A stretch of 64,000 nucleotides of DNA from Minisyncoccota bacterium (GTDB lineage: Bacteria; Patescibacteriota; Minisyncoccia; Phycocordibacterales; Phycocordibacteraceae), in contig JBDSUM010000007.1 of NCBI GenBank assembly GCA_039927695.1, positions 11,700 to 75,699 on the forward strand, written 5' to 3'. Positions 7,857 to 35,414 of the stretch are shown here, piece after piece. A program made the translations under genes and the position numbers. The first letter of the stretch is position 1. Every line of letters starts with the position of its first letter. The notes below the pieces were generated by a model. The model saw only the letters and a program-made list of their open reading frames with translations. It did not search any database and had not been told where the DNA came from.

Positions 7857-7864
7857 CAACTTTT

Positions 7865-8557: not shown

Positions 8558-8589
8558 TAGGCCATATCTGTGCCGCCCTTCCACAATAC

Positions 8590-8907: not shown

Positions 8908-8912
8908 AATAT

Positions 8913-9797: not shown

Positions 9798-9798
9798 T

Positions 9799-15176: not shown

Positions 15177-15235
15177 CTAAACAATATAGCGCATCATTAT
15201 CTCAGATTTTAACTTCAATGAACAACCTACTTAAA

Positions 15236-15263
15236 TTTGTTCGAATATCGTCCCAGACGGTGC
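15236..15263 (+). repeat. Conserved intergenic repeat, copy 1
   Basis: tttgttcgaatatcgtcccagacggtgc. Confidence 0.8.
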
Positions 15264-15355
15264 TATGGTGGTGACCGCCACGCTGTTCGTCTCATATTTT
15301 AAATTCAAAAAGTGGGTATAAGAAAGCTCCACTCACACTTCTAAAAGTGATAAAT

Positions 15356-15471: not shown

Positions 15472-16539
15472 ATGCCCAGAATATGGACCGCTGAGGCCGT
15501 TGTCTCAGCGATTAAAACACTTCAAGATAATGGAGAGGCTCTTGATCTAACCTCAATCAACCAAGCTCACCGAAATCTACTTTGGGCTGCTACGAAATAT
15601 CATGGTACCTGGAGAAAGGCTGTTGAGGCATGTGGGATTGAATATTCATCAGTCTCACGAATTGCAATTGATCGCCAGTCCTGGGATAAGGAAAAGATAA
15701 TTGCGACACTGAAGAGTTTGTACGAACAGGGTCTTCCCTTGAATTCCAATTACGTACAGACAAAGCAACAACGTCTCTTTGGTGCTGCAACTAAATATTT
15801 CGGTGGTTGGCCTCAAACAGTGGAAGCTGCTGGTCTGAATTATGACAGGTTGCGAAAGGTAAAACTGCGCAACTGGTCCATAGAAGTAATCATTGAAGCA
15901 GTCATACATAGAGCACACTCCGAGAAATCGATAAGTGGGGCTGTTGTCTATGAAGAAGATAGAGGTCTATATCAAGCAGCTAAAAGACACTTGGGTAAAG
16001 GTGGTTGGGCTAAGGCACGAGTACTTGCAGGTTTCGCTCCAATCGATCCAGATCCCAAAAGGAAATGGACTGAAAAGAGTGTGACTGAAGAGATTCAGCG
16101 TCTTCATGCAAATGGAGTACAGCTTTACACCCAAGCCCTACAACGGAGCGAATTCAGTTATATTCTTGCAGCTGGTCGGAAAGTATTCGGAACATGGGCA
16201 TGCGCAATTGAACGCGCTAGCTTAAATTACGCTGAAATTCGAAAGGGCCGCAAGAACTTCTGGACACGTGAAGAAGTACTCCGAGGAATTAAAGGTCTTG
16301 AGGCGCAAGGTGTCCGCCTTAGTTTAAAGGAAGTAAGAGTTGGTCGTAGTGGTCTTATTGCAGCTGCGATAAAGTATTTCGGTTGCTGGAGTCAAGCGGT
16401 GGAAGCCGCAGGAATTCAGTACCGTTTACATTGCCAGACCTGGTCAACAAAAGCATGGCTGCGTCGCATGCATGTAGATGAATACAACGCGACTCTTGAA
16501 ACTTCACGAACACTTGCTAAGAAAAGGAGAATGCAATGA
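15472..16539 (+). CDS. Tandem-repeat protein (homing-endonuclease-associated-type ~50-aa repeats, no nuclease domain)
   Basis: Five repeats with core a.KYfGsW..AvEaAGi.Y (ATKYHGTWRKAVEACGIEY, ATKYFGGWPQTVEAAGLNY, AIKYFGCWSQAVEAAGIQY and two more). Confidence 0.5.
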   Translation: MPRIWTAEAVVSAIKTLQDNGEALDLTSINQAHRNLLWAATKYHGTWRKAVEACGIEYSSVSRIAIDRQSWDKEKIIATLKSLYEQGLPLNSNYVQTKQQRLFGAATKYFGGWPQTVEAAGLNYDRLRKVKLRNWSIEVIIEAVIHRAHSEKSISGAVVYEEDRGLYQAAKRHLGKGGWAKARVLAGFAPIDPDPKRKWTEKSVTEEIQRLHANGVQLYTQALQRSEFSYILAAGRKVFGTWACAIERASLNYAEIRKGRKNFWTREEVLRGIKGLEAQGVRLSLKEVRVGRSGLIAAAIKYFGCWSQAVEAAGIQYRLHCQTWSTKAWLRRMHVDEYNATLETSRTLAKKRRMQ

Positions 16540-17582
16540 GTATTTCAGCTATCACTAAGCACGGGTTCAAGTTGATTCCGGTTGCTGATATCCAAGAAAC
16601 TGTGGTGCAACTTCGCACCCATTATGCCAATGAGCCTCTTCAAGAACTGGGCAATTCTCTCGAAGATGATGGACTACTTCAGCCCATTGTCGTTGCCCCT
16701 GGTGATGAATTCAAATTCGAACTCATTATCGGCTCACGCCGTCTTCGGGCAGCACGTCATAAGGGTATGGAAGAAATTCCAGCCCTCGTGATTGAGGAGA
16801 CCAGTCCTCTGAATTATCTGCTGATTGCACTCGGCGAGAACCTTCATCGAGAAGACCTGAATCCATTTGAGGAGGCACACGCGTTCCTCCGTCTTATGAA
16901 GGATTACGGGCTTGGTGTGCAGGAAGTAGCCGTAAGAACGCATAAGGGCGAAGCGTTCGTTCGGAAGCGGATGGAATTGCTCAGTATGCCTGAGAATGTT
17001 CAGGCAATGATTGCTGAGAAGAAACTCGCCCTCCACTTCGTCCAAGCACTTGCTCGTTTGCCTACGGGTGAACAACAAGTGTATTACGCGCAGAAAGCTC
17101 TCTCTGAGGGTCTGTCAATCAGCGAGCTTCGGCAGTTGATTACAAGTGACGCGGGCGAGATGGCACCAAGAACAAAGCGGGATTTCTCCGCTGATAAAGT
17201 TCGTGTTCGTATCGATATGTTCGCTCGCTGGATGAAGCGACTCTCGGCGAACAGTGCCTTCAACAGAAGCCTCAATGCAGAAGAACGGGCTGCACTCGCG
17301 CGATCTGTCCAATCTCTGGATGGAGAGCTACGTGTTGCTCGTTCGGTGTTTGGCGAGTGGGTAGGTCGCACACCTGTGCGCTCGATCCCCAATCTGAGCA
17401 ATATCGTTGATGATCCCGATAACCATGGTGACCAGTGGTCACTGCGGCATATCGAAATGATTACCGCCAACGATCGCCCTTCTGACGATATGCTTGCAAC
17501 CAAGCTCGGCAGAAGTGTTGCTGCTATTCGTGGTATGCGATCCAAGATGCAAAGAGAAAGGAAGGATCGAAAAACCGGGTAA
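16536..17582 (+). CDS. ParB-like N-terminal domain protein
   Basis: ParB box LQPIVVAPGDEFKFELIIGSRRLRAARHKG; start overlaps the previous stop (ATGA). Confidence 0.75.
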   Translation: MSISAITKHGFKLIPVADIQETVVQLRTHYANEPLQELGNSLEDDGLLQPIVVAPGDEFKFELIIGSRRLRAARHKGMEEIPALVIEETSPLNYLLIALGENLHREDLNPFEEAHAFLRLMKDYGLGVQEVAVRTHKGEAFVRKRMELLSMPENVQAMIAEKKLALHFVQALARLPTGEQQVYYAQKALSEGLSISELRQLITSDAGEMAPRTKRDFSADKVRVRIDMFARWMKRLSANSAFNRSLNAEERAALARSVQSLDGELRVARSVFGEWVGRTPVRSIPNLSNIVDDPDNHGDQWSLRHIEMITANDRPSDDMLATKLGRSVAAIRGMRSKMQRERKDRKTG

Positions 17583-18226: not shown

Positions 18227-18256
18227 CAAGGGGGTCAATTGACCCCCTTGTTTATT
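18227..18256 (+). terminator. Rho-independent terminator (perfect palindrome)
   Basis: caagggggtcaattgacccccttg followed by tttatt. Confidence 0.7.
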
Positions 18257-18270
18257 AATAGATAGCTAGA

Positions 18271-18300
18271 TTTGTTCGAATATCGTCCCAGACGGCCAGC
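18271..18300 (+). repeat. Conserved intergenic repeat, copy 3 (consensus-like)
   Basis: tttgttcgaatatcgtcccagacggccagc. Confidence 0.85.
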
Positions 18301-18303
18301 AAA

Positions 18304-19050: not shown

Positions 19051-19074
19051 TTTTCTTAATATAAAAGATATATA

Positions 19075-19104
19075 TTTGTTCGAATACCGTCCCAGACGGC
19101 CAGC
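19075..19104 (+). repeat. Conserved intergenic repeat, copy 4
   Basis: tttgttcgaataccgtcccagacggccagc. Confidence 0.85.
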
Positions 19105-19144
19105 CAAGTTGAGATAGGTTCTGGCGTCCGAGACGCATTGATAT

Positions 19145-19255: not shown

Positions 19256-20941
19256 ATGAAACGAAAACCCCAAGTCATTGATTTCTTTTGTGGTGCCGGA
19301 GGCTTCTCCGAAGGCTTTCGTCAGCAAGGGTTTGAAGTCGTTATGGGTATCGATAATTGGTTGCCGGCAATAGAGACACACAACCTTAATCACAATCTTA
19401 ATGACAAGGTTAGAGACGTGCTCGAATTTGGCAACTCGCTTGAAGAAATAAATTCGCTGCCCGATACAGAGGTTATCGTGGGAAGTCCTCCTTGCGTGCT
19501 TTTCTCTCTCTCTAACAAAGGAGGTAAAGCTGATAAGACACTCGGTATTCGATTGATCGAATCCTATCTGCGTGTAATCGCTATAAAAAAGCACCAGCCA
19601 TCGTCGCAACTAAAGGCATGGTTTATGGAGAATGTTCCGAACTCTAGGAACTATATTCGTCCCACCTATACATTTAGCGAGCTGGATCTGACTGAATGGG
19701 CAAGAAATCACGGTTTTGATCCTAATCAGATTGCTCTGAACGGCTCATCAAACGGAATCGTATTAAATACAGCTGAATTTGGTGTCTCTCAAAAACGAGA
19801 ACGTTTTGTGTGTGGTGAGATCATCTCTACGGGCAAGTTCCCGAACCTAGAAAAATTTATGAGCAAGACGTATCGCAGCATTGGAGAGGTAAAAGGAAAG
19901 ATGCCTGCGCCTAATTTGCCGCTATCAAATAAATTATTTTCTGACCCTAATTATCCTTCCACATCTTTTAAGATGAAGGATATGACTGATCATTTCTATG
20001 ATTCAGGTATATATGAAATCCAGTGGAGGAATGCTCAATATCTAAAGGTAAATCATCCCTTCATGGGAAAGATGTCCTTTCCTGAAGACGAGAAGAACCC
20101 GAGCCGTACTATCATGGCAACCCGTTCAATGACCACACGAGAATCTCTAATATACAAATCAGAATATAGTCGACGAGGAGATGGGGAATACAGATTACCT
20201 ACTATACGCGAGATAGCAACTCTCATGGGTTTTCCATACTCGTATCAATTCTCAGGAGCGGAGAATACAAAATGGAGACAGGTTGGTAATGCCGTTTGTC
20301 CTCCTATGAGTTCAGCTCTTGCCAAGAGCGTAAGACTATCTATTGGATTAAGTGTAATTCCCGTTTCAAAAATTACCTTCAATTCTCTTAAGGGTAAGCT
20401 AGACAGGATTCAGAACATAAATACTTTCTCTGAAAAGAAATTTAATGATCCGCCAAAAAGGAAACTAAATGCGCGTTTCCGAAGGCATCCTTTTAAGGAT
20501 GGTAATATGACGGTTGCTTTAACGAACTTTAATCCGGTATCTCCAATCGATTCTCCTGAAGTCACAGAGTGGTATTCATCTGTATTCATGGGCTCTGGTA
20601 AAGACTTTACTATTAAAATTCTCACTAAGAGTCAATTCAAAGAAATTGCTAAATTTATTGAAGTAAATAATAAGGACTTGAGTACAAAATTTACTCAGGA
20701 ATTTAATGAAAAGTTTAAAGCTGTTATTGGTAATACTCACAAGTTTCAAGAAGCCTACGTGTTAGAAAACTCTCGCTTGCCTCATGAGCCTGGACGTTTG
20801 GTAGATGAAATTAGTGACTTCATACGCGCGTTTGATTCAACGGAAAAACACATGCAAATTCCAGATTTTCTTCCAGGAAAGAATCTGTTACCTATCCGAC
20901 AAGTCCTCGCCATGTACGCTCTCAATAGACTTGTGTCGTAA
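19256..20941 (+). CDS. DNA (cytosine-5)-methyltransferase
   Basis: Motif I FFCGAGGFSEGF; motif IV GSPPCVLFS (PC); motif VI ENV (WFMENVPN); motif VIII QKRERF; long C-terminal target-recognition region. Confidence 0.9.
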   Translation: MKRKPQVIDFFCGAGGFSEGFRQQGFEVVMGIDNWLPAIETHNLNHNLNDKVRDVLEFGNSLEEINSLPDTEVIVGSPPCVLFSLSNKGGKADKTLGIRLIESYLRVIAIKKHQPSSQLKAWFMENVPNSRNYIRPTYTFSELDLTEWARNHGFDPNQIALNGSSNGIVLNTAEFGVSQKRERFVCGEIISTGKFPNLEKFMSKTYRSIGEVKGKMPAPNLPLSNKLFSDPNYPSTSFKMKDMTDHFYDSGIYEIQWRNAQYLKVNHPFMGKMSFPEDEKNPSRTIMATRSMTTRESLIYKSEYSRRGDGEYRLPTIREIATLMGFPYSYQFSGAENTKWRQVGNAVCPPMSSALAKSVRLSIGLSVIPVSKITFNSLKGKLDRIQNINTFSEKKFNDPPKRKLNARFRRHPFKDGNMTVALTNFNPVSPIDSPEVTEWYSSVFMGSGKDFTIKILTKSQFKEIAKFIEVNNKDLSTKFTQEFNEKFKAVIGNTHKFQEAYVLENSRLPHEPGRLVDEISDFIRAFDSTEKHMQIPDFLPGKNLLPIRQVLAMYALNRLVS

Positions 20942-20985
20942 TTGACAAAAGGCTCAAATGCAGGGAATATGATGATTAAGACTGC

Positions 20986-22413
20986 ATGAACAAAGCCACT
21001 CGAAGTCAGAAGATTGGGGAAATCACTGCTGGCGAACCCTACGGCAAGCAAGATATTCTCTGGCATGGAAAGCTCGTGTCAATGAACGTATATGAGATTC
21101 CTCTCGAGTATTTGATTTACAACAGGTACAACGGACGAATTCTTAGTCGAACAAAGACTCTTGAAAAGCAGGGACGGGATATAAATCCTGAATCCGATGA
21201 GGGCAAGAAGCTCATCGAGAATCTTCTTTGGAAATCCAAGGAATCGAGAAACGATATCACTATGAAAGATATCTCCGATAAGGGTCAATTGAAGATTGGT
21301 ATTGTAACCAAAGATGGAATCGTTATCGATGGAAATCGGCGCTTGATGCTTCTTAACAGAATTAAAAAGCATCGCCACTTTAAAGCAGTAGTTCTTCCTG
21401 TCGCCCTTGAAGATGATCCTATTGAGATTGAGAAGCTGGAGACAACATACCAAATGGGTGAGGATGAGAAGCTCGGCTATAACCCAATCGAGAAGTATCT
21501 CAAAGCAAAACAAATCTATAAGAAGCTTACAGAGCAAGAAACTCACGATGATGCCATAAAGCAGATTGCTGAATGGATGGGGGAGGAAAAAGGAGTTATT
21601 GAAGACTGGCTAGAGGTAGTCAAAATGATAGATGATTATCTCGAGTATCTAAAGTACGACGGGATATACTCCATGGCTGACACTCCAAACGACGGTAAGG
21701 AAGACCTCTTCTTGTATATAAAGAAATGGCTAAATACTTTCCACGATAAAGAGTCTAATAAAGGATTCGATGGGTACAGCCAAATGGATGTAGATGATCT
21801 TAAACAAATTTCTTTTGACTATATTCGCGCTAAGATTGGAAAATCCTATGATGGAAAACAGTTTCGTTACATCGCTGATGGTCAAAAGCAGAAACATTTC
21901 TTTGGAGACAAGAAACTGTGGGCTAGTTTTAGCGAAGATCACTTTGCGGCAGTTACCCCCGCAATCGAAAAGATAGATTTTGAATATCCAATTGATTATA
22001 ACTCTGAAAATATTGAAGCATCTCTCTCAAATAGAGATGCAAAGTTCAGAGATGAGGTATTGGATGTTCTGACAAAGAATATTGAAGAACATGTGACAGA
22101 CCTCGGCTATGCTGAAGCTGCTGATAAACCTCTCAAGCTCGTAAGTAATGCGCGAAAGGCTATTGAATCTATTGATCAAAAGCACAAAGCCTTCTCAGCG
22201 CCTGAAGTCATTGAGCAGGTTGAAGAATTGATCCAGACTCTCATAGGAATGCTAAAGAAGAAGTCTCCTGAGGAAACGGTCTCTTTAGTTGCGAATCTGC
22301 TCGAATCTCTTGAATTGAATTCGGGATCGATTGACAAGGAAGGTATGCTCGAAAAGGTAAAGGAAATATCGCGTCTAGCTTATCAAATTGAGAAAGACGT
22401 TAAATCGCTGTGA
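20986..22413 (+). CDS. ParB/Srx-fold (ParB-like nuclease domain) protein
   Basis: GQLKIGIVTKDGIVIDGNRRLMLL matches the ParBc core; rest unrecognised; 475 aa. Confidence 0.55.
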   Translation: MNKATRSQKIGEITAGEPYGKQDILWHGKLVSMNVYEIPLEYLIYNRYNGRILSRTKTLEKQGRDINPESDEGKKLIENLLWKSKESRNDITMKDISDKGQLKIGIVTKDGIVIDGNRRLMLLNRIKKHRHFKAVVLPVALEDDPIEIEKLETTYQMGEDEKLGYNPIEKYLKAKQIYKKLTEQETHDDAIKQIAEWMGEEKGVIEDWLEVVKMIDDYLEYLKYDGIYSMADTPNDGKEDLFLYIKKWLNTFHDKESNKGFDGYSQMDVDDLKQISFDYIRAKIGKSYDGKQFRYIADGQKQKHFFGDKKLWASFSEDHFAAVTPAIEKIDFEYPIDYNSENIEASLSNRDAKFRDEVLDVLTKNIEEHVTDLGYAEAADKPLKLVSNARKAIESIDQKHKAFSAPEVIEQVEELIQTLIGMLKKKSPEETVSLVANLLESLELNSGSIDKEGMLEKVKEISRLAYQIEKDVKSL

Positions 22414-22425
22414 TAATGAATATTC

Positions 22426-24402
22426 ATGAGCCAATCTATAAATATTCATACAGATAACGAGAGACATAGTTTCTATTTAACAGGTAATATCCCAGAGTTA
22501 CTTGCGAATTCTAGACTGCTTTTCTCGCTCAAGAGATTACAATACACCCCTCACGAAGAGGGAATGTTAGTACCATTTGAAGATAAGACTAAAATTAAAG
22601 TTCTCCAAGAGATTCAAATGCTCATGGAGAAGTTTTCTTTCGATGTTGAACTTTCGATAGAAACCAAGAAAGATGTTTCTAGCTTTGATCGTGAGCAACA
22701 GACATTTAAGGAATTCTCAGAGAAGGCACGAGATATCCGTAACAATCGGTTCAAGGATGAACCTGAGTTAGTTGTAGACTTCGATTCCTTTCAGAAGGCA
22801 TTAAAGGATAAAATCGTACGTCCTTTATATCCTCTGCAATTATTGTCTGCTTTTCACATGGCTTTCTCGCAAAATGCTTGTAATTTTGCAGTGCCAGGTG
22901 CAGGAAAGACCTCAATTGTTTACGGTGCGTATACCTACCTAAAAAGTCTTCCTACTGATCATCCTAAACACGTCGACAAGCTTCTTGTGATTGGCCCGCT
23001 TTCATCTTTCGCGCCGTGGGAAAATGAATATGAGGCTTGTTTTGGTGAAAAGCCCACCTCGCAAAGATTGTCAGGGGACGATAAGGTTTTGCGTAATCAT
23101 AAGGAGCAACACCTTTTTTCGAGTAATCCTGCTGAACTAACCCTTATATATCATGGAGGTGTTGTTCATCTTCAAAATGAAATACTTTCTTTTCTAAAGA
23201 GAAATAAGACTATGGTGGTAGTTGACGAGGCACACCGAATTAAGAATCCTGAGGGTGTATGGGGCAAGAGCGCCGTAGAGATTTCAAAAGAAGCGGTCTC
23301 CAGAATCATTCTTAGCGGTACACCAGTTCCCAATGGCTATGAGGATTTATTTAACTTATTCCAATATCTATATCCGTATCGCTATAAGGACATACTACAT
23401 TTCCACTACGATAATTTAGTTGAAATGACCAAAACAGCTTTGCCCGATAGCGATCGAGTAAAGCAATTCATAGATAATATCTCACCTTACTTTATACGTA
23501 TTAAAAAGTCTGATCTTAAATTGCCTCCAGTTAAGGAGAATAACGTAATGGTTGATATGGATTCTCACCAAAGAGAAATCTATGATTTTATTGAGACAAA
23601 ATACATACGTTCCTTTGAAAATAGTAATACGGCGGCAGCAAAAGATGTCTTAAATAAAGCGAAATTAATTCGTTTAAGACAGGCAGCTACAAATCCCTCT
23701 CTGCTCCTTAAGCCCATAGTAGAAACCCTCTATGCTGACGACTACGAATCAAGAATCTCTATAGGCGGACGTATGCCTGAAGAATTTCAAGATGATTCAG
23801 AGATACTCTCAAAGATATATAACTATCAGAAGGTAGAGACCCCTAAGAAATTCTATGAAATTAAGAAGTTGTTAGAAGAAAAAATCCTTGCAGGTAATGG
23901 TAAGGCAATTATTTGGACGATATTCATACAGAATGCCAAACAACTTCAAGAGTATCTAATGGAGAATGGTATTCCGATTCGTCTACTTATTGGAGAGGTT
24001 GAACAATCAGAGAGGGAGGTAATTATCACAAAATTCAATGATCCGAATGACAGTGATTTTCAGGTAATCATCGCAAACCCATTTGCCGTGTCAGAGTCTA
24101 TATCTCTGCATAAGGGATGTCACAACGCTATTTACATGGAGCGTGATTATAACTGTTCTAACTTCCTTCAATCAAAAGATCGTATACACCGATATGGCCT
24201 AGCGGACAATCAAGAGACTAATTATTACTATTTCTTATCACAAGATTCTATTGATGGAGTCATTCACGATAAATTAGAGGAGAAGGTCAAGAGAATGGAA
24301 AGAATTATCGATGAAGAAATACCACTTTTCGCTCGACTTAATGACTCTGACGAAACAGATTTGATAACAGCTCTTATAGACGATTATGCTAAAAGAGCTT
24401 GA
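22426..24402 (+). CDS. SNF2-family helicase/translocase
   Basis: Motif I PGAGKT; motif II DEAHRIKN; motif III LSGTPVPNGYEDLFNLFQYL; helicase-C motif VI SKDRIHRYG. Confidence 0.85.
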   Translation: MSQSINIHTDNERHSFYLTGNIPELLANSRLLFSLKRLQYTPHEEGMLVPFEDKTKIKVLQEIQMLMEKFSFDVELSIETKKDVSSFDREQQTFKEFSEKARDIRNNRFKDEPELVVDFDSFQKALKDKIVRPLYPLQLLSAFHMAFSQNACNFAVPGAGKTSIVYGAYTYLKSLPTDHPKHVDKLLVIGPLSSFAPWENEYEACFGEKPTSQRLSGDDKVLRNHKEQHLFSSNPAELTLIYHGGVVHLQNEILSFLKRNKTMVVVDEAHRIKNPEGVWGKSAVEISKEAVSRIILSGTPVPNGYEDLFNLFQYLYPYRYKDILHFHYDNLVEMTKTALPDSDRVKQFIDNISPYFIRIKKSDLKLPPVKENNVMVDMDSHQREIYDFIETKYIRSFENSNTAAAKDVLNKAKLIRLRQAATNPSLLLKPIVETLYADDYESRISIGGRMPEEFQDDSEILSKIYNYQKVETPKKFYEIKKLLEEKILAGNGKAIIWTIFIQNAKQLQEYLMENGIPIRLLIGEVEQSEREVIITKFNDPNDSDFQVIIANPFAVSESISLHKGCHNAIYMERDYNCSNFLQSKDRIHRYGLADNQETNYYYFLSQDSIDGVIHDKLEEKVKRMERIIDEEIPLFARLNDSDETDLITALIDDYAKRA

Positions 24403-25360
24403 GCAATATGAGAACCTTGGCACGCCAGCGTTCTTTGCAGAGTTATTTAACCAACTCCACGGAGCAGAACTCCCTTGGACGTCTAGCCACGTAAGAGGTT
24501 ATTTTTATAACAGGATTGTAGATGACAATTCTGTCTTTGATGGCTGTCTTACCTTAGTTGAAGCCATTGGTGCAGTGACCATCGATAGCGGTGGAAACAT
24601 CACACTAAACCCTTCTTTGGTGCCAATGCTCGTAAACGAGAGATACCTTGCGAACAAGTTACTTGAGATGCTATTGGCTGTAGTAAAGGAAGATGAAATT
24701 TTTCATGAAATATTCTGTCCCAAGAATCTCTCATACGACATTATATATAAACTGATTCAAATTGATGGTTCAGCTTTTCGATTCCGCTATGCTAGTTTTA
24801 GGCAATTGCTGGTAAGTTTTGAATTCTTATACCCTCATCCTGAGAAGAGCATCAGAAAATATATAGTTAATTCAAGGTATAAGAAGCTGTTTGATCAACA
24901 GATTTTACCTGAAATACGTCAGCGTAAACTTGGCATTGAAGAACTCGAGGCTCTTCTAGAAAGGAAACAAATCTATGGAGAACAGGCAGAATCATATGCC
25001 CTCGAATATGAAAGAAAAAGATTGGCCAAACATTCAAGTTTGGGCAATGTTGAATTGATTTCTGGATATGATGTCGCCGCAGGATATGATTTGATCTCCT
25101 ACGAAGATGAATCTTCAACAGAGCTCGATCGGTTTATAGAAGTAAAATCCTTTTCAGGTACTCCAAGCTTTCATTGGTCACGCAATGAAATAGATGTCTC
25201 AAGACTAAAAGGGAAGAGATATTTCCTCTATTTAATAAATAGAGACGAAATGGCAAATTCAACCTATGTTCCTACAATCATACAGAATCCCTACGATGAA
25301 GTATTGTCGGATGATAGTTGGACGAAGCGTGTAGATAGTTATTTTATAATTAAGAACTAG
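24386..25360 (+). CDS. DUF3883-like (predicted PD-(D/E)xK nuclease-related) C-terminal domain protein
   Basis: GYDLISYEDESSTELDRFIEVKS resembles the DUF3883 core; overlaps the SNF2 stop (operon). Confidence 0.45.
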   Translation: MLKELEQYENLGTPAFFAELFNQLHGAELPWTSSHVRGYFYNRIVDDNSVFDGCLTLVEAIGAVTIDSGGNITLNPSLVPMLVNERYLANKLLEMLLAVVKEDEIFHEIFCPKNLSYDIIYKLIQIDGSAFRFRYASFRQLLVSFEFLYPHPEKSIRKYIVNSRYKKLFDQQILPEIRQRKLGIEELEALLERKQIYGEQAESYALEYERKRLAKHSSLGNVELISGYDVAAGYDLISYEDESSTELDRFIEVKSFSGTPSFHWSRNEIDVSRLKGKRYFLYLINRDEMANSTYVPTIIQNPYDEVLSDDSWTKRVDSYFIIKN

Positions 25361-26059: not shown

Positions 26060-28768
26060 ATGAATAGACTGGATAGTGAAATACTAACGATCGATACAGC
26101 CATCTGTGAAAATATCGATAAATTCCACGCCTCAGAAAGAGGTCTTTTGTCGCAGAATATCTTGGCTCAGCTTAGGAATTTTGTTGAGCATATCGCCCTA
26201 AAAGAAGAATCAAACGGACAAGACATTGATTTTACATTTGAAGATTTAAAGAACGCGCCTAATAGAATACAACCGAAGGGATCGCTGGCATACTTGAGGA
26301 GATTTCATAATTTTTTACAAGGAGTGGCCTCACACTATACGCAGAGCAAAGAAAACTCAGAACGCCTAATGCTGAAATACTATGAGTATTTAATCAGGAT
26401 TAAATCCCGTCTTAAGAACACCTATGGCTTAGAGGTGCTAAGTAATATTGATAAGTTCCCAACAAATACGGATCCTGCCTTGCAGGAATATTACGAAAAG
26501 ATAGTGGAGAAAATCGAACGCCCAACAAAAGCGAGAAGGGTCAGTCCTTATAGTGATCGGTACTATATCCAGAAGATCAAACCATTTTTTGTTAAGCACG
26601 AAATATACTACGAAGTCACTTTTACAATTGCGAGCGCTCAAGTTAGTAAATTTGATAGAGTCATCGCTTTTACCAAGCTAGATATTTCCGATAATTACGC
26701 CGTTAAACTTTCCGTAATACATGACGATATTGAGGTCTTGGGCAAAAAGATGCCTATTCACATCATTGATAAATGGGAGGTTTCTGTTCGACCTTGCGAG
26801 CTTAACAACTTTAGTCGCATTTTGGGTGAGAATGTAGATATTCAATCAAAGAGTACGGAATACAAAAACCTGATGAGTTTTTTGACAGAGACTAGTCTAA
26901 GTTTCGTTGAGCTTATCGATCTCTCTGATGATTACTATGATGCTGCGAAAAGCCGTATCGCTCAGGGGGTACAAGCAATACACTTCCTAACTGTCTTAGA
27001 TAAGGCAAAGGCCTTGGTTAGGGGTAATGAAGTTGGTACTAACGTGGTGAGATATTTACTGCGATCTTTAAACAATAGGATTATAAAGCTACAACGAAGT
27101 CGCTATGGCGGGTACAAACTTCGAGAAGATTTAGGCTTCAATCTTGGATGTAAGCCGTTCGATACAATGCCTTTCAACTCCTCACTGATAGGACACAACC
27201 CAAAGATTTCAGATGTTTTTGAGTGTATTAGTGCAGCAGATCGAGAGCATGAACTTTTTGCAAGACTAATTAAGGACAATACAGAAAATAAAGGAAAACT
27301 ATATACGCCTGTAGAAGGTTTACCTCAGACAAAGGAAGAGATTGCAGAGCTAGTCGCTACTTACAACGCTGAGCTTTACTACAAGCACACACATCGCAAG
27401 TTAGAAAACTTTAGAGATTTTATTTATATAAACGGTTATGAAAAAGATACTTTAGACATAATTAAAAGACTCAAAGAGTTGTCATCAGGTGGGATAAACA
27501 ACTATTCGAATTCTGTAGATTCGTGGCTGAAGTCGTCCGCATATCAAATTGACTGCGAAGATAAGGAAAGGATTCTAAGACAGATGTTTACAGATTCTGA
27601 AGTGGCATTGATATACGGTGCAGCTGGTACTGGAAAATCAACGTTGATAAACCACATATCAAACTTTTTCAACGAGAATCAGAAGCTCTACTTAGCCAAT
27701 ACCAATCCCGCCATTGATAACTTGAAGAGAAAAGTTAACGCATCAAATAGCACCTTTCAGACGGTTGCTAAATTCCTATCGCATCGAAATACCGAAACAG
27801 AATTCGATCTCCTTATTATTGATGAGTGCAGCACCGTTAGTAATAAAGATATGATTGATGTTTTGAATAAGGCAAAGTTTAAATCCCTTATATTGGTTGG
27901 TGATGTATTCCAGATAGAATCGATAATATTTGGAAACTGGTTTAATGTTGCAAGATCCTTTGTGCCAAAAACGGCGGTATCCGAACTAACAGTTCCTTAT
28001 CGGACTACGAATCAAGAACTGATTAAATTTTGGAACAGAGTTAGAAATCTTGAAGACAATATTCTTGAAAGCATGACGAGGAATGGTTATACCACCGTCT
28101 TAAATGAATCCATTTTTGAGACCCTAGAGGACGATGAAATTATTCTCTGTTTAAATTACGACGGTCTGTACGGCATAAACAATTTAAACAAGTTTCTTCA
28201 GGGTAGTAATGAAAATGTTCTTGTGCATTGGGGCATACAAACTTACAAGATTGGTGACCCTGTTCTCTTTAACGAAACAGATCGATTTGCGCCAATAATC
28301 TATAACAACCTAAAAGGCCGAATTGTTGGTATAGATAAATCTGAAGATCAGATCCAATTTGATATTGAGATAGATAAGGCAATAAATGAATTGCAAGCAT
28401 CAGGCTATGATTTTGAATTGGTCGGGAGTGCTGCAAACGGGAATTCAGTAGTCAGATTCTTGGTTAGCAAGCAAGGAGACACGGACGAAGATGATGAGCC
28501 GCTAGATTCAGTGGTCCCATTTCAAGTCGCCTATGCTGTGTCAATTCATAAGGCTCAAGGTCTAGAATACGGTTCTGTGAAGGTTGTGATTACGAATGAA
28601 AGCGAAGAGATGATCACTCATAACATTTTTTACACAGCCATAACTAGAGCTAAGGAGAAACTTAAAATATATTGGACGCCTGAAGCAGAGAAAAAAGTAT
28701 TAAGTGGTTTTAAGAAGCTAGATGCGACAGAAGATGTCGGACTTCTGTCCTCGAAGCTCACCTCATAA
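26060..28768 (+). CDS. SF1 helicase (RecD/Pif1-like, AAA_30 + UvrD_C_2) with ~500-aa uncharacterised N-terminal domain
   Basis: Walker A GAAGTGKST; Walker B LLIIDECS; VGDVFQ motif III; C-terminal VSIHKAQGLEYGSV...FYTAITRAKEKL. Confidence 0.8.
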   Translation: MNRLDSEILTIDTAICENIDKFHASERGLLSQNILAQLRNFVEHIALKEESNGQDIDFTFEDLKNAPNRIQPKGSLAYLRRFHNFLQGVASHYTQSKENSERLMLKYYEYLIRIKSRLKNTYGLEVLSNIDKFPTNTDPALQEYYEKIVEKIERPTKARRVSPYSDRYYIQKIKPFFVKHEIYYEVTFTIASAQVSKFDRVIAFTKLDISDNYAVKLSVIHDDIEVLGKKMPIHIIDKWEVSVRPCELNNFSRILGENVDIQSKSTEYKNLMSFLTETSLSFVELIDLSDDYYDAAKSRIAQGVQAIHFLTVLDKAKALVRGNEVGTNVVRYLLRSLNNRIIKLQRSRYGGYKLREDLGFNLGCKPFDTMPFNSSLIGHNPKISDVFECISAADREHELFARLIKDNTENKGKLYTPVEGLPQTKEEIAELVATYNAELYYKHTHRKLENFRDFIYINGYEKDTLDIIKRLKELSSGGINNYSNSVDSWLKSSAYQIDCEDKERILRQMFTDSEVALIYGAAGTGKSTLINHISNFFNENQKLYLANTNPAIDNLKRKVNASNSTFQTVAKFLSHRNTETEFDLLIIDECSTVSNKDMIDVLNKAKFKSLILVGDVFQIESIIFGNWFNVARSFVPKTAVSELTVPYRTTNQELIKFWNRVRNLEDNILESMTRNGYTTVLNESIFETLEDDEIILCLNYDGLYGINNLNKFLQGSNENVLVHWGIQTYKIGDPVLFNETDRFAPIIYNNLKGRIVGIDKSEDQIQFDIEIDKAINELQASGYDFELVGSAANGNSVVRFLVSKQGDTDEDDEPLDSVVPFQVAYAVSIHKAQGLEYGSVKVVITNESEEMITHNIFYTAITRAKEKLKIYWTPEAEKKVLSGFKKLDATEDVGLLSSKLTS

Positions 28769-28787
28769 GAAGTAGTTCCTGGGGTCA

Positions 28788-30110
28788 TTAAATTATATCC
28801 ACACGTTTGTTGTTTAGGACTATTTTACTCTTCAGACACGTCAATAAATCTCGCTTCTCAAACATCGATCCTTCGGTCAGAAGATACTTTGCATAGTTCC
28901 TGATGTCGGCTTCCTTTGCATAATAGATTTCTTCGGCTTTGCCCATGATGCCGGAGTGGAACTTCTTGTGCCGTTCAATCTCGGCCTCCAGTTTCTTCTT
29001 GATGCCTGAATGATCAAGGTCGACTTGGTCGATGATTTCTGTTAGTTGGTTGATGAGAATCTTCTCTTCGATATACCCCTCCTTGCAATTGATGTCTTTG
29101 GATCGGGTGCAGCCGTAGTAAATATACTTTGCAATTGAACCGTCCTTGAGGTTTTTAAACTTCTCCTGGGCAGTTACGCCTGAACCGCACGCTCCGCAGG
29201 AGAGGAGTCGAGTAAAGGCAAACTCCTTGTTCTTATTTGGCGCGCGGATTTGAAGATGGAGTTGTTTCTGGACGGCATCGAATAATTCCTTAGATATGAG
29301 CGGTGCATGCTTTCCCTGGAACCATCGTCCGCTTGTTTTCGGATACTCAAACGAACCGTGATAGAAGTGGTTGGCCAGAATAACGTAGACATTGCTCAAA
29401 GTGAGAGGCTTTCCGGTTCTTGTGACGAACTTAATATCCTTGAGCCACCTGTATACCTTACGGCCACTCCATCCCTCGTTCGCTACTTTCTGGAAGAGTT
29501 CCTTGATAATCGGTGCTCGGTCGGGATCTATGAACACGACACCCTTCTGATCCTTATTCTTGGAGTTGAGGTATCCAGTTGGCGCTACTGACGGCCAGAG
29601 ACCCATTTCGCATTTGGTCTTGAGGCCGCGCTTTACGTTAATACTCTTGTTGTCGTTCTCAAGCTTGGCTTGGGAGCCAAGAATCATGAGGAGAAACTTC
29701 TCGTTCGGATTGTTGGTGAAGCGTTGGCTGTAGGTACGGATTTCTATGAGTTTCTTCTGATCGAGGAGGTCTACTACTGCACCGAGGTCTCCCGCATTTC
29801 GAGCTAGGCGGTCAGGATGCCAGACGAGGATGCCGTTAAACTTTCCCTCGCGGATATCGAGAAGCAGTTTGTTGTATACCGGTCGCTGTCCGGCATCCTT
29901 TGCGGAATGTGACTCTCGATACATATCCACCACGTTCAACCCATCTCGCTGAGCTACGGCCAACATCTCGTTTAGTTGGGAATCTATGGAGAGTGCCTGC
30001 TTCTCTTCAGCTTCGCTCGATTTACGGGCGTACAGGCAATACCTGACGGGTTCCTGCTCCTGGAGGCCGGGAATAGTTATATTCGCTCCATATGCTGTTG
30101 CGGTTTCCAT
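28788..30110 (-). CDS. Large serine recombinase (paralogue of 714..2033)
   Basis: YCLYARKSSEAEEKQ catalytic motif; roughly three-quarters identical by eye to the 714..2033 protein over the catalytic domain; zinc ribbon CGACGSG...YYGCTRSKDINC. Confidence 0.9.
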   Translation of the reverse strand: METATAYGANITIPGLQEQEPVRYCLYARKSSEAEEKQALSIDSQLNEMLAVAQRDGLNVVDMYRESHSAKDAGQRPVYNKLLLDIREGKFNGILVWHPDRLARNAGDLGAVVDLLDQKKLIEIRTYSQRFTNNPNEKFLLMILGSQAKLENDNKSINVKRGLKTKCEMGLWPSVAPTGYLNSKNKDQKGVVFIDPDRAPIIKELFQKVANEGWSGRKVYRWLKDIKFVTRTGKPLTLSNVYVILANHFYHGSFEYPKTSGRWFQGKHAPLISKELFDAVQKQLHLQIRAPNKNKEFAFTRLLSCGACGSGVTAQEKFKNLKDGSIAKYIYYGCTRSKDINCKEGYIEEKILINQLTEIIDQVDLDHSGIKKKLEAEIERHKKFHSGIMGKAEEIYYAKEADIRNYAKYLLTEGSMFEKRDLLTCLKSKIVLNNKRVDII

Positions 30111-30302
30111 ACGACACGAACATACCGGACACGGCTACGAAGTCTAGTGCATAACGACTTACGGAGCAGAAGGGTGGAAGAGTCAACGACTATACAAGTT
30201 CGGAGAATGAAGCTAAGGTACGGACGTTCGCTAAGAATGCTTATTTCTGTCATAATTTACCCGTATAAGGCTTGGGTAAGAAAGATTGAGCCGAATAACT
30301 TT

Positions 30303-31478
30303 ATGGAAAATAAATCTCAAAATAAAGGTCTAACTGCAGCAAAGAAGGCAAAGAACGATGAGTTTTATACTCAGCTTGTTGATATTGAAAAAGAGCTGAA
30401 GCACTACAAAAGCCAATTTCGCGGAAAGGTTGTCTACTGCAACTGCGACGACCCTTTTGAAAGCAACTTCTTTAAATACTTCGCTGGTAATTTTAACGCA
30501 CTTGGACTAAAACAGTTGATTGCGACTAGTTACAAACCATCTCCAATTGCCAATACCCAACTCGGGCTCTTTGGTAACAGCACGGTGTTAGCAACGACTA
30601 AAGGTCGTCAAAAAGTAACTGCCAATAAATTCATTATCAATGAGGTTGACGATATTGACGGTGACGGTGCTTTTGACTTGCGTGATATTGCTGAGCAGCT
30701 TAAGGCTAATAAAAATAATGAATGGTCACCGTTAGATGGTGAGGGAGATTTTAGAAGTGCAGAAAGTATAGAATTGCTCAAGCAAGCTGACATTGTAGTG
30801 ACCAATCCACCTTTTTCACTCTTTCGTGAATACGTTGCACAGCTAATGGAGTATAAAAAGAAGTTTTTGATTCTTGGCGATCAGAACGCTATTACCTACA
30901 AGGAAACCTTTAGCTATATCAAAGAGGACAAATTGTGGCTTGGTTATGACAATGGTGGCACAAAGTGGTTTCAGGTCCCGATGGATTACGACATACCAAC
31001 AGAATCAAGAAAGAAAATTGAGAACGAGGTGAAGTACTTCAGTATGGGAAGAATTATGTGGTTTACGAACCTTGATACCACTAAGCGGCATGAGGAACTG
31101 ACATTGTATAAAAAGTATTCTAAAGCAGAATACCCAAAGTACGACAATTACGACGCAATAAACATTGATAAAGTTTCCGACATTCCAGCAGATTACGATG
31201 GCGTAATGGGTGTGCCAATTACTTTTTTAGATAAATACAGCCCTGAACAGTTTGAGATTATTGGTATTACTAAGAAATTGGGATTCCATTTGAGGACACG
31301 CGTCTACCCCAATCAAACACAGGTCAGTGCCGACGGAGTACGGAGTGTGGTCTCGAAATTGAACGATGGCGCTACGATAAAGCTTTCCAAGGCTCCAGTT
31401 GGCAAGACGTATTATATTGTCGGTGATGAGTTTTTTGTCCAACTCTATGCGCGTGTCTTAATTAAAAGAAAAAACTAA
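30303..31478 (+). CDS. N6-adenine DNA methyltransferase, EcoRI-methylase-like family
   Basis: N-terminal KKAKNDEFYTQ...KVVYCNCDDPF block; NPPF motif IV (IVVTNPPFSL); ORF-track N-terminal extension overlapping the recombinase is rejected. Confidence 0.7.
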   Translation: MENKSQNKGLTAAKKAKNDEFYTQLVDIEKELKHYKSQFRGKVVYCNCDDPFESNFFKYFAGNFNALGLKQLIATSYKPSPIANTQLGLFGNSTVLATTKGRQKVTANKFIINEVDDIDGDGAFDLRDIAEQLKANKNNEWSPLDGEGDFRSAESIELLKQADIVVTNPPFSLFREYVAQLMEYKKKFLILGDQNAITYKETFSYIKEDKLWLGYDNGGTKWFQVPMDYDIPTESRKKIENEVKYFSMGRIMWFTNLDTTKRHEELTLYKKYSKAEYPKYDNYDAINIDKVSDIPADYDGVMGVPITFLDKYSPEQFEIIGITKKLGFHLRTRVYPNQTQVSADGVRSVVSKLNDGATIKLSKAPVGKTYYIVGDEFFVQLYARVLIKRKN

Positions 31479-31479
31479 T

Positions 31480-32583
31480 ATGAAAATAGAACTACATAAA
31501 ATCAAAGTGCGTGAAGTGGTCGATGGCTACAAAGATAGTCACGAGGAAGGCGTCGTGGCGTATGGCGGCAAACTTGATGTTCGTCCAAAATATCAGCGCG
31601 AATTCGTCTACAAAGACAAGCAACGTGATGCGGTTATCGATACTGTCAGACAAGGATTTCCTCTTAACGTTATGTACTGGGTACAAAGTGGAGAAGGCAG
31701 TTTTGAGGTGCTAGATGGACAACAGCGAACAATCAGTATTGGTCAATATGTAAACGGAGATTTCTCAGTTGATTTCAGTGGACGAACAGCAATGTTCCAT
31801 AACCTCACCAAAGAAGAACAGGAGCAGATTCTCAACTATGAGTTGATGATCTATTTTTGTGAAGGAACCGATAAAGAAAAGCTCGATTGGTTCAAGATTA
31901 TTAACATCGCTGGAGAGCGTCTTACGGATCAGGAATTACGCAACGCCGTCTACACCGGCCCATGGCTTTCAGATGCGAAACTCAAGTTCAGCAAATCCAA
32001 TTGTGCCGCGTATCTTTTGGCGAACGACGGTGGTGCATTACTTACTGGCTCACCAATTCGGCAAGAATATTTGGAAACTGCACTGGACTGGATAAATAAC
32101 GCCGAAGTTGCTGAGTATATGGCAAAACATCAGCACGACAAAAACGCTAACGAATTATGGGAGTATTTTCAAAATGTAGCTGAGTGGGTACGGAAAACAT
32201 TTCCCAATTACCGCAAAGAGATGGCGAATGTTAATTGGGGTGAGTTGTATAACGAATTTAAGGATAGGAAGCTTGACGCTAAAAATCTAGAATCCGAAGT
32301 TGCAGAATTGATGCAGGATGAGGACGTAACAAAGAAATCAGGTATTTACCCTTACACACTCACTAGGCAAGAACGGCATCTTTCGATACGCGCTTTCAAC
32401 GATAAGATGAAGCGTGAAGCTTATGAGAGACAGAAGGGTATCTGCGTAAAGTGTGGAAAGCACTTTGAAATCGAAGAGATGGAAGCGGATCATATAACCC
32501 CATGGCACGAGGGTGGTAAAACGACAGCACAAAATTGTCAGATGCTGTGCAAGCAAGATAATCGAACCAAGTCAGATAAGTAA
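31480..32583 (+). CDS. DUF262 (ParB-like, DGQQR) + C-terminal HNH nuclease; GmrSD-like type IV restriction enzyme family
   Basis: YQREFVY...[12 protein letters not shown]262 signature; C-terminal CVKCGK...[32 protein letters not shown] motif. Confidence 0.8.
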
Positions 32584-32588
32584 CATCT

Positions 32589-33866
32589 ATGAATGAGATT
32601 ATCTGCCCACACTGCAAAAAGGCTTTCAAAATAGACGAGGCAGGTTTTGCCGATATCTTAAAGCAAGTTCGCGACCATGAGTTTGAGAATGAACTTCATG
32701 AGCGTGCGGAGTTATTTGAGAAGGATAAGGAAAGCGCGGTCAAACTTGCGGAAGCTAATCTCAAGAACACACTACAAGCAGATCTCGCAAGAAAGGAGGC
32801 TGAGCTAGTTCAGTTGGAGGCGAATAAGGATCGCGAACTTGCCGAGCTTGAAGCAAAAAAAGAAGCAGAGATTGCTGAGGTGAAATCAAAGATAAGTAAT
32901 GCAGATCTCGAGAAGAAACTTGCCGTCACTGAAGCGGTAAATAAGATTGAGAAAGAACGTGATGAACTTGCTGGTGAGCTAAAAATTAAAGATACGGAGA
33001 AGCAATTGCTCGAGACATCTCTAAAAGATAAATACGCAACTGAGCTTAAGACCAAGGACGACATCATTAAGATGAAAGACGAAGAAATTGCTCTTCGTAA
33101 GGACATGAAGGTAAAACTCTCAACCAAAATGGTTGGCGAAACACTAGAGCAGCACTGTGAGACTGAGTTTAATAAGCTCCGTGCGACTGGTTTTCAAAAC
33201 GCATATTTCGAAAAAGATAATGATTCGACGAGCGGCAGTAAGGGTGACTACATATACCGTGAGACTGACGAATCTGGAAACGAGATTATATCCATCATGT
33301 TCGAAATGAAGAACGAAGGTGATGAGACTGCTACCAAGAAAAAGAACGAAGATTTCTTAAAGGAACTTGATAAGGATCGTACCGAGAAAAAGTGTGAGTA
33401 CGCCGTTCTCGTTACACTTTTGGAGTCGGAGAATGAACTGTACAACACTGGAATTGTTGATGTATCTCACAAATATCCAAAAATGTATGTGGTTCGTCCG
33501 CAATTTTTCATTCCTATAATCACGTTACTACGTAACGCAGCTATGAACTCGCTTAAATATAAAGCCGAGCTTGCTGTAGTAAAGAATCAAAATATCGACA
33601 TCACCAACTTTGAGGAAAATATAAGTAAGTTCAAAGAGGCGTTTGGTAAAAACTATCAACTTGCTTCTAGTAAATTTAAGACAGCAATCGAAGAGATAGA
33701 TAAAACTATCGATCATCTTCAGAAAACTAAAGACGCACTCCTGTCTTCTGAAAACAATCTTCGACTTGCTAATAATAAAGCAGAGGATTTGACGATCAAA
33801 AAGCTTACGAGAGGAAACCCTACAATGCAGGCAAAGTTTGACGAGCTTCCTGATGCGGACAAATAG
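32589..33866 (+). CDS. DUF2130-family coiled-coil protein
   Basis: N-terminal [23 protein letters not shown] then a long coiled-coil; architecture as in DUF2130. Confidence 0.55.
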
Positions 33867-33935
33867 CTAAACTTGCTCCGTTGCTTTTGAAATAGGGGAT
33901 AACTCTATTACGACCTTTCTGCAAAGGAAGCTAAG

Positions 33936-34295
33936 TTACTCATACGCCGACTTCGGCGCAAATATGGCATCAATCCTTTCATCCTCTTCGTCACCAATCT
34001 TGCGCTTATGTGTTTTTCTAGCAGTCTCGCCATCTCCTCTATATGGCGGCGGCTTTCCATCCCTATATTCCCAGATCATTTTGATCATCTGCTGGTCTCC
34101 CTTAAGAGCCATTTGGACGATTCTTTCAATCATCAGCTTCTCTATAGTCTTCCGGTCTTTGCCTTCTCCAACCGTCTGCTGGAGAACCTCCAAAATGACG
34201 GTCTTCATGTTCTTTGATCCTGGCGGCCGTCCATTCAGATTTCGCCTTGGATCATAGCCGGACCGGAAGGGTTTTAACGTATGTGGGTTACTCAT
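33936..34295 (-). CDS. DUF5681-like phage-associated small protein
   Basis: N-terminal FRSGYDPRRNLNGRPPGSKN resembles the GxSGNPxGRPxGxxN motif. Confidence 0.4.
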   Translation of the reverse strand: MSNPHTLKPFRSGYDPRRNLNGRPPGSKNMKTVILEVLQQTVGEGKDRKTIEKLMIERIVQMALKGDQQMIKMIWEYRDGKPPPYRGDGETARKTHKRKIGDEEDERIDAIFAPKSAYE

Positions 34296-34598
34296 GCCGA
34301 TAACAATATCGGCTGTTTTCGTATTAACTATAGGAATTACTTTACGCAGTAAAAATCACAGTTAAAAAGGGAGAAAACGGTGACCCGAAACCGGCTTCTT
34401 CACCGTATTTTTCCCGTATTAACGGTCAGGAGTAGGACGACCTAGAGCCGTTAGTCTCGCAGCAAAATATTCGCTAGAATACCCTTACAACAGCTCATGT
34501 CAGTCGGTACCAGACTAAGCATCGCAGCCAACTCGTGCTAGGTTATCGCGCTCGAGACGCGTCGGTAAATTTCGTCTAAAAGTGATAGCATGTAGATA

Positions 34599-35321
34599 AT
34601 GAATGTTGATATTGAACAAATCCGAACATTGTTGAGAGTCAATGGATTAGATGAACAAAGTTCAGATACGCAAATATCTAGTATTTTGCAACAAGCAGGA
34701 TATGCCCCCGATCAGCAAGAAGCAGCTCTGCGTCTATTAAAGCAAGGTCAAGCACCTTCGTTATTATCCAGTGCTGAAGCGCGTCCTAATCCACCCCATT
34801 CAATAAGTATCCCTGCTCTTCAAAAGCAGGACCGGGTCGTGAGTTGGCTTAGAGTTTACTATATTCTACTTGTTGTATACCTCATTGCATTTACCATTGT
34901 TACGTTAGGGTTCGGTCCACTTCTGATACAAGGGTATTTTCTCGAATCACTCATTGTAATTACTTTCCTATTCGTAATCAGTTTATGTTTACCAACAGTT
35001 CGTAGACACAAGAAGCAAACCTTCTTCTTCCTTCTAACATTCATCTTTGCCGCTTCACCATTATTTCTCATACTAAAGCCTGCGATTGGACTATCCAATA
35101 TCCCTCTTTTTATTAAGGTCAGCGGCATGGAGTCGAAAGCTAGCAAAGGGGATCTATTAATGTGGCAAAAACGGTATAAAGAAGATGAAGCCACAGGATA
35201 TTTTGAAACCCATCCAGGAAGTAAATTTGATGAGACGTTAAGAATTAAAGAATCCAGAGACAAATATTGCGCTGACTCTTTTAGCAAAGGCGATTCTGAC
35301 TACAAAAGCTTGTGTCAGTAA
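34599..35321 (+). CDS. Polytopic membrane protein
   Basis: 3-4 TM helices in the central region. Confidence 0.45.
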   Translation: MNVDIEQIRTLLRVNGLDEQSSDTQISSILQQAGYAPDQQEAALRLLKQGQAPSLLSSAEARPNPPHSISIPALQKQDRVVSWLRVYYILLVVYLIAFTIVTLGFGPLLIQGYFLESLIVITFLFVISLCLPTVRRHKKQTFFFLLTFIFAASPLFLILKPAIGLSNIPLFIKVSGMESKASKGDLLMWQKRYKEDEATGYFETHPGSKFDETLRIKESRDKYCADSFSKGDSDYKSLCQ

Positions 35322-35362
35322 GCTGAAACATCACTCTTAAAAAGTTTTCTTTATTAATAGCC

Positions 35363-35389
35363 GTTTGAATACCGTCTCAGACGGCCAGC
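35363..35389 (+). repeat. Conserved intergenic repeat, copy 6
   Basis: gtttgaataccgtctcagacggccagc; dyad CGTC-TCA-GACG. Confidence 0.8.
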
Positions 35390-35414
35390 CAGATTGTTTG
35401 ATAGAATAATCGAC

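Follow-up and report, generated by a model that had tools for sequence, protein, structure and literature searches.

Our analyses support the assignment of two adjacent genes of a Minisyncoccota bacterium, encoding an EcoRI-family N6-adenine methylase (positions 30303-31478, + strand, 391 amino acids) and a DUF262/HNH restriction nuclease (31480-32583, + strand, 367 amino acids), to a known and widely distributed kind of restriction-modification pair catalogued as Type II. The two genes probably constitute a methylation-protected system in which a nuclease of GmrSD-like fold cuts DNA that lacks the mark. They lie in a stretch of 64,000 nucleotides of contig JBDSUM010000007.1 (assembly GCA_039927695.1), which is referred to here as the window and whose own numbering is used throughout. 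The assignment draws on gene content, motif conservation, gene order and coupling, co-divergence, fold, and matches to Type II models. A first-pass annotation of the same DNA had proposed, as the first of its options, that the nuclease acts as the restriction partner of the methylase, and this is the option best supported by the present results: 73 of 80 related loci keep the order of the two genes, plasmids and a phage carry the pair at nuclease identities as low as 38%, the divergence of one protein follows that of the other (r = 0.73), and the catalytic residues are conserved.

The methylase matched the Pfam family EcoRI_methylase over its full length (E = 3e-137) and the PADLOC model MTase_II PDLC03297 over essentially its full length (E = 7.6e-120), while a sequence search of the PDB with the same protein returned no match. 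The motifs NDEFYTQ, CNCDDPF and NPPF (the latter at 30804-30815) are present, the first and the last of them as read directly from the sequence in the first-pass annotation, and all three fall in the best-conserved blocks of the protein, with a mean column conservation of 0.88-0.96 among 66 full-length methylase-nuclease pairs; the catalytic and cofactor motifs are intact. The variable segments (residues 91-150, 211-255 and 316-375), which carry insertions and deletions and show an average identity of 0.43 in the same 66 pairs, appear to be loops or parts involved in recognition. The protein is 48% identical to M.EcoRI, encoded on small Escherichia coli plasmids, over residues 1-324; compared with that enzyme, it carries an insertion near residues 106-140 and is lengthened at the C-terminus by a variable segment (residues 325-391). 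The ATG at 30303 is the likely start of the gene, as the alignment with M.EcoRI then begins at the first residue of the protein; one gene caller took the ATG at 30237.

The stop codon of the methylase gene is separated by 1 nucleotide from the start of the nuclease gene, which is followed after 5 nucleotides by a gene encoding a DUF2130 protein (32589-33866, + strand, 425 amino acids), and both gaps were measured as first described. The positions attributed to these genes were likewise placed correctly, since the open reading frames at 28788-30110 (a serine recombinase discussed below), 31480-32583 and 32589-33866 were confirmed and the methylase gene ends at 31478, and the Pfam families proposed for them (EcoRI_methylase, DUF262, HNH and DUF2130) were all matched. 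A scan of positions 28600-34700 for promoters and terminators returned counts equal to the shuffled expectation, and no terminator-like signal was found in it between the nuclease and DUF2130 genes.

The nuclease combines the Pfam domains GmrSD_N (DUF262, E = 3.2e-17) and HNH (PF01844, E = 1.9e-13), so that the DGQQR-bearing DUF262 domain and the HNH domain named in the first-pass annotation are both present. Its N-terminus (approximately residues 1-160) is a ParB/Srx-type DUF262 domain with the motifs PxYQR (36-40) and DGQQR (79-83, nucleotides 31714-31728), its middle (approximately residues 160-305) is a family-specific helical domain, and its C-terminus is a zinc-finger HNH domain holding two CxxC pairs and comprising C322, C325, D337-H338 (nucleotides 32488-32493), N352, C353, C357 and N361. 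In an alignment of 100 sequences of the nuclease family reaching down to 36% identity (A2), residues Q39, R40, D79, G80, R83, N142, Q151, E152, C322, G346 and N352 are invariant and Q81, Q82, C325, H338 and C357 are at least 90% conserved; in a separate alignment (A1), the HNH residues C322, C325, D337, H338, N352, C353, C357 and N361 are all invariant. Loss of the catalytic residues on alignment would have spoken against the first-pass proposal, and the active site of the nuclease is instead intact. As a whole, the protein aligned from residue 1 to 367 with the PADLOC model REase_II PDLC03418 (372 positions, E = 1.6e-146), and standard defence annotation would thus call the pair a Type II restriction-modification system, the PADLOC label being an annotation and not a tested function.

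An AlphaFold model of the nuclease built from the 100-sequence alignment reached a mean predicted local distance difference test (pLDDT) score of 93.6 and a predicted template modelling (pTM) score of 0.81, and replaced an earlier, poor model obtained from a shallow alignment of 32 sequences (pLDDT 60.5). The nearest solved structures are BrxU and SspE, and the predicted fold is GmrSD-like. The earlier description of the nuclease as GmrSD-like therefore stands for the fold. It differs in its nuclease domain, which is a PF01844 HNH and not DUF1524 (no Pfam match to DUF1524 was found in the protein at E <= 0.01), and in size, as the protein is approximately 200 residues shorter than BrxU or SspE.

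The pairing of an EcoRI-type methylase with a GmrSD-like nuclease had been regarded as unusual, and the survey of relatives contradicts this view. In a scan of one genome per species, relatives of the nuclease were found in at least 590 species-representative genomes, and a search of cluster representatives with the nuclease retrieved 522 clusters (50% identity) at E <= 1e-30. We compared 80 of the loci in those genomes, with nucleases 68-89% identical to that of the window, from many lineages of Patescibacteria and from Proteobacteria, Firmicutes, Bacteroidota, Chloroflexi and several archaea. In 73 of them, the nuclease gene is preceded on its own strand by a gene for an EcoRI-family methylase; in 56 of these 73, at most 25 nucleotides separate the two genes or their ends overlap (typical spacings of 1, -4 or -11 nucleotides). 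The remaining seven loci are not counter-examples because their upstream flank is too short or filled by an inserted gene: the sequence available upstream amounts to 0-2.3 kb, or accessory genes are inserted there, and none shows a solitary nuclease. The methylase is hence upstream in every informative locus, and the adjacency on whose conservation the first-pass annotation had made its proposal depend is kept in homologous loci. The pair was also found at full length on 44 plasmid records, among them a 7.5-kb Ligilactobacillus plasmid whose sole genes encode a MerR-type regulator, the methylase, the nuclease and rep, and in the Flavobacterium phage laban6-1, where the nuclease is 38% identical to that of the window.

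Among the 66 full-length pairs, mean pairwise identity reaches 0.74 in the nuclease and 0.72 in the methylase core, and the distance matrices of the two proteins are correlated as given above; nuclease and methylase co-diverge under purifying selection. The ratio of nonsynonymous to synonymous differences per site (pN/pS) was 0.17 in the nuclease, against 0.33 in the methylase, with a pS of approximately 0.85, at which synonymous sites are saturated; saturation together with the low ratios indicates that the identity observed across phyla reflects strong constraint and not a very recent spread. We also considered that the nuclease might be far better conserved than the methylase, implying targeting guided by the methylase, and rejected this idea, as the methylase core is equally conserved.

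In relatives, genes for RhuM, Fic/DOC, SMC/AAA_23 ATPase, T5orf172, Bro-N and AbiJ proteins are inserted in a variable slot that lies between the two core genes or next to them. Insertions between methylase and nuclease or just upstream of them were seen at this hotspot in seven loci (L009, L013, L014, L042, L044, L060 and L069), and such accessory genes are a pattern familiar from other restriction-modification operons. Two loci depart from the usual composition in other ways. In L035 (4006-6150), two tandem EcoRI-family methylases, 76% and 68% identical to that of the window, precede a single nuclease, and a serine recombinase lies directly downstream of the set. In L091 (3001-5067; ENA ERZ27257842, k141_149627), from a host that reads TGA as tryptophan, with seven TGA codons at conserved tryptophan columns, an EcoRI-type methylase and a DUF262/HNH nuclease form a natural in-frame fusion of 688 amino acids. 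The methylase motifs of this fusion are degenerate (NPPF replaced by FPSF and NDEFYTQ by NNLFASL), so that this part of the protein may do no more than bind DNA; the 6-kb locus contains no methylase gene besides the fusion. The existence of such a fusion hints that methylase and nuclease touch one another.

The DUF2130 protein (Pfam E = 1.6e-89) carries a CxxC in its N-terminal part, a coiled coil and, towards the C-terminus, a motif of PD-(D/E)XK type (GD...EMK), in agreement with the listing of DUF2130 among PD-(D/E)XK families (PMC3424549), and a PDB sequence search with it returned no match. Its gene is probably co-transcribed with the pair in the window. Its inclusion in a common unit, as first proposed, was not upheld among relatives: only two of the 80 loci have a DUF2130 gene in the neighbourhood of the pair, between methylase and nuclease in L010 and 6 kb away in L006, while replicons of Mitsuaria and Bradyrhizobium carry such a gene by itself, in unrelated contexts. 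Given this co-occurrence, we rejected the idea that the methylase has DUF2130 as its actual restriction partner, and DUF2130 is best read as an accessory passenger in the variable slot and not as a conserved third component.

In the mechanism that we favour, the EcoRI-family enzyme would place a methyl group on N6 of adenine (m6A) in a short site of the host's own DNA, and the downstream, translationally coupled nuclease would attack DNA without the mark through its C-terminal zinc-finger HNH site. The ParB/Srx (DUF262) domain, in which every residue of the nucleotide-binding signature is kept, probably licenses or resets cleavage by binding or hydrolysing a nucleoside triphosphate (NTP), as in BrxU, GmrSD and SspE, and the helical middle domain is the candidate for reading both the sequence and its methylation state. 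Protection by methylation, NTP dependence of cleavage and the choice of the domain that reads DNA are all three points that we infer. Several observations weigh against this mechanism. No palindromic 4-mer or 6-mer, including AATT, GAATTC and CAATTG, was clearly depleted in the window, in the defence island described below, in the chromosomal part or in the 80 loci pooled, and full-text literature searches found no biochemically characterised pair of an EcoRI-type methylase and a DUF262/HNH nuclease. All solved structural relatives of the DUF262 part (BrxU, SspE and DndI) sense a DNA modification and are not blocked by one (PMC12707154, PMC9646914). Furthermore, the nucleotide-binding motif (Q39, R40, D79, G80 and R83) suggests that the enzyme may depart from textbook Type II behaviour, in which Mg2+ only is needed and the position of cleavage is fixed.

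Different scenarios might accommodate these observations. In a modification-licensed defence following the Ssp/SspE pattern, the DUF262 domain would sense the m6A placed by the partner on host DNA and so control a nucleotide-dependent activity, unmarked invading DNA being nicked or cut, and the mark would serve to activate or position the nuclease, either in addition to shielding host DNA or in place of it. The invariance of the nucleotide-binding motif and the sensing of modifications by all solved DUF262 nucleases agree with such a pattern, as does the reliance of SspE activity on host modification (PMC9646914, PMC13251355), and the strict linkage of nuclease and methylase fits it equally well as it fits the classical model. 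Nothing in the sequence demands this kind of sensing, however; methylase-first order, translational coupling and minimal plasmids form the classical pattern of restriction-modification and addiction modules, and PF01844 is another HNH family than the DUF1524 of SspE and GmrSD, and we regard this scenario as unlikely. The presence of the pair on very small plasmids and in a recombinase-rich island, and its spread across phyla and into archaea, would also suit a mainly selfish addiction module, which stabilises its mobile element or plasmid through post-segregational killing and contributes little to phage defence. This is a biological role and not another mechanism, as it requires the same methylation-protected cutting, and the neighbours of the pair in the window are defence genes (CBASS, PDC-S53 and other methylases); as the main function of the pair it seems decidedly unlikely.

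The DUF262 domain and the GmrSD-like fold, on the other hand, could point to an ordinary Type IV enzyme directed against modified phage DNA, the methylase being an unrelated neighbour or serving another nuclease such as DUF2130, whose PD-(D/E)XK-type motif and probable co-transcription with the pair would be in keeping with that role. Against this stand the methylase found upstream in every informative locus, often overlapping the start codon of the nuclease gene and co-diverging with it, the rarity of DUF2130 near the pair and its solitary occurrence elsewhere, and the normally free-standing nature of Type IV enzymes. In addition, the only Type IV model matched, PADLOC mREase_IV, gave a weak hit (E = 0.0013) restricted to the HNH part. 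A Type IV role is accordingly highly improbable, and methylation-protected restriction remains our preferred explanation.

A further idea, which we put forward as tentative and on balance rather unlikely, is that the pair constitutes the m6A counterpart of the phosphorothioate-sensing Ssp system, with a nucleotide-driven ParB-like nuclease that reads host adenine methylation to switch between safe and cutting states; by analogy with ParB/Noc clamps, such a nuclease would possibly load at sites and slide, and it would be more than a plain Type II enzyme that needs Mg2+ only. If this were true, one of the most widespread restriction-modification families of Patescibacteria would operate in a way that has no described precedent among methylation-based systems. 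In annotation, a DUF262/HNH protein encoded directly downstream of an EcoRI-family methylase is to be taken as the restriction half of a pair and not as a stand-alone Type IV enzyme. The nuclease family is large, has members in bacteria, archaea, plasmids and phage, and is constrained to a degree unusual among restriction enzymes, and its characterization could yield a new enzyme reagent.

A large serine recombinase gene (28788-30110, - strand, 440 amino acids) is divergently transcribed relative to the methylase gene, and its product matched the Pfam families Resolvase (E = 2.8e-24), Recombinase (E = 1.6e-17) and Zn_ribbon_recom (E = 1.7e-4). It had been described as approximately 75% identical to the recombinase encoded at 714-2033; protein identity is in fact 61% (77% similarity), and one 90-nucleotide stretch of DNA is 73% identical. 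A recombinase more than 50% identical lies within approximately 4 kb of the pair in four of the 80 loci, divergently arranged as in the window in L011 (84% identical) and L020 (56%) and downstream of the pair in L003 and L040 (53-56%), and more distant serine recombinases occur within 8 kb in approximately ten further loci. DNA similarity between loci ends at gene ends, no convincing direct or inverted repeats that could represent attachment (att) sites flank the block from the recombinase to a DUF5681 gene (33936-34295, - strand, 119 amino acids, Pfam E = 1.6e-6), and when other assemblies were searched for the flanking helicase and the recombinase, no contig but that of the window was retrieved. 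The recombinase is not among the conserved partners of the pair and likely serves as integrase, either for the island described below or for a sub-element. The proposal that the unit is carried by the recombinase thus remains suggestive, with a related recombinase in four of the 80 loci; no att sites were found around the block, and the sole sharp boundary belongs to the whole island.

This island, a defence island of at least 34.5 kb in which the methylase-nuclease pair is one cassette, extends from position 1 of the window to approximately 34525, to the right of which the genes look chromosomal. At the polymorphic junction (34520-34530), defined by alignment of the window with contigs L095 and L094, a contig of a different sample matches the window exactly on the right-hand side and bears no relation to it on the left, and two Logan contigs of the window's own sample end or begin at approximately 34525. 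It is the only mobile-element boundary defined by the data and marks the right edge of the variable island, the last gene before it being that for the DUF5681 protein, a 40%-identical fragment of which lies directly upstream of the methylase in L046.

Within the island, three large serine recombinases, an N6/N4 methylase and a C5 methylase are encoded. The gene abutting the 3' end of the recombinase gene next to the pair (26060-28768, + strand) codes for a 902-residue superfamily 1 (SF1) helicase-like protein that matched the PADLOC candidate model PDC-S53 end to end (1-900 of 900, 1307 bits). Further upstream, four genes at 19256-25360 (+ strand) encode a C5 cytosine methylase (561 amino acids), an unannotated protein of 475 amino acids, an SNF2-family helicase (658 amino acids) with weak similarity to ZorD, DpdE and DrmD, and a NOV_C protein (324 amino acids) similar to PD-T4-1 and to the C-terminus of TmtA, and this run looks like a further, unclassified methylase-linked defence cassette. 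A CBASS-like cassette at 7503-10422 (+ strand) comprises a helix-turn-helix (HTH) regulator, an M78-type peptidase, a DUF2188 protein, a CD-NTase-type cyclase (8913-9797) and an effector (9730-10422) with two transmembrane segments and a Cap15-type domain, and adjoins the third large serine recombinase gene (10950-12449, - strand). The genes at 15472-17582 (+ strand) encode a 355-residue protein with a faint HNH_repeat match followed by a 348-residue ParB_N + HTH_ParB protein, the second ParB-fold gene of the island; a PADLOC search with both proteins returned no match.

Two intergenic features accompany these genes. Beside the recombinase gene at 714-2033, positions 2483-2597 (+ strand) gave a full-length match to the Rfam LOOT RNA family (69.8 bits, with a gathering score of 46.4). 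A repeated element of approximate sequence TTTGTTCGAATAyCGTCCCAGACGGCCAGC, containing a small CGTC/GACG hairpin, occurs at 15217-15268, 18252-18303, 19056-19107 and 35341-35392, as an inverted partial copy at 4003-4027, and in contig L095 at approximately 160-200. A similar sequence, GTTCGAATCCCAGACAGCCAGCC, is found exactly at the polymorphic junction in L095, with a degenerate version on the window side, and the element could be a repetitive extragenic palindromic (REP)-like element or a recombination target of the island's serine recombinases.

Among known systems, the nuclease shares with GmrSD, Eco94GmrSD and BrxU the N-terminal DUF262 domain with its DGQQR motif. It differs from the GmrSD family in its zinc-finger HNH domain (PF01844, in place of DUF1524), from BrxU and SspE in its shorter length, and from Type IV enzymes of the GmrSD family, which stand alone and cut modified DNA, in its constant link to a methylase. 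SspE and DndI are DUF262 nucleases that are likewise paired with a DNA-modification module; in their case, however, the modification is a backbone phosphorothioate made by a multi-gene pathway, whereas a single methylase is predicted to make m6A here, and their nuclease domain belongs to a different family from the PF01844 HNH of the window. No phosphorothioate genes (sspABCD or dndABCDE) were found around the pair, whose neighbours encode the recombinase, DUF2130 and DUF5681 proteins. The ParB-DUF262 domain is also shared with Menshen NsnA and PD-T4-2_A, although only this N-terminal domain matches (nuclease residues 30-162 against the PADLOC models NsnA, E = 4.8e-26, and PD-T4-2_A, E = 4.6e-10), and the Menshen and PD-T4-2 systems have other partners (NsnB and NsnC) without a dedicated EcoRI-type methylase (PMC12065111). 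That ParB-DUF262 domains might be directed against unmodified genomes was suggested in the Menshen study (PMC12065111), and a link of ParB-like COG1479 nucleases with modification systems had been noted earlier (PMC3632139). NCBI families hold no specific name for the nuclease, which is called "DUF262 domain-containing protein" in RefSeq.

The closest comparison is with the EcoRI system itself, since the methylase is a true homologue of M.EcoRI, of the same Pfam family and with the same motifs, and both systems are two-gene modules on mobile DNA. Besides the internal insertion and C-terminal extension of the window's methylase, they differ in the fold of the partner nuclease, which is ParB/Srx + HNH here and PD-(D/E)XK in R.EcoRI, and in gene order, the methylase preceding the nuclease here, whereas on the M.EcoRI plasmids and in one Klebsiella relative the partner is an EcoRI-type nuclease located upstream of the methylase. 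A single methylase family thus works with nucleases of two unrelated folds, and such partner swapping is normal in the evolution of restriction-modification systems.

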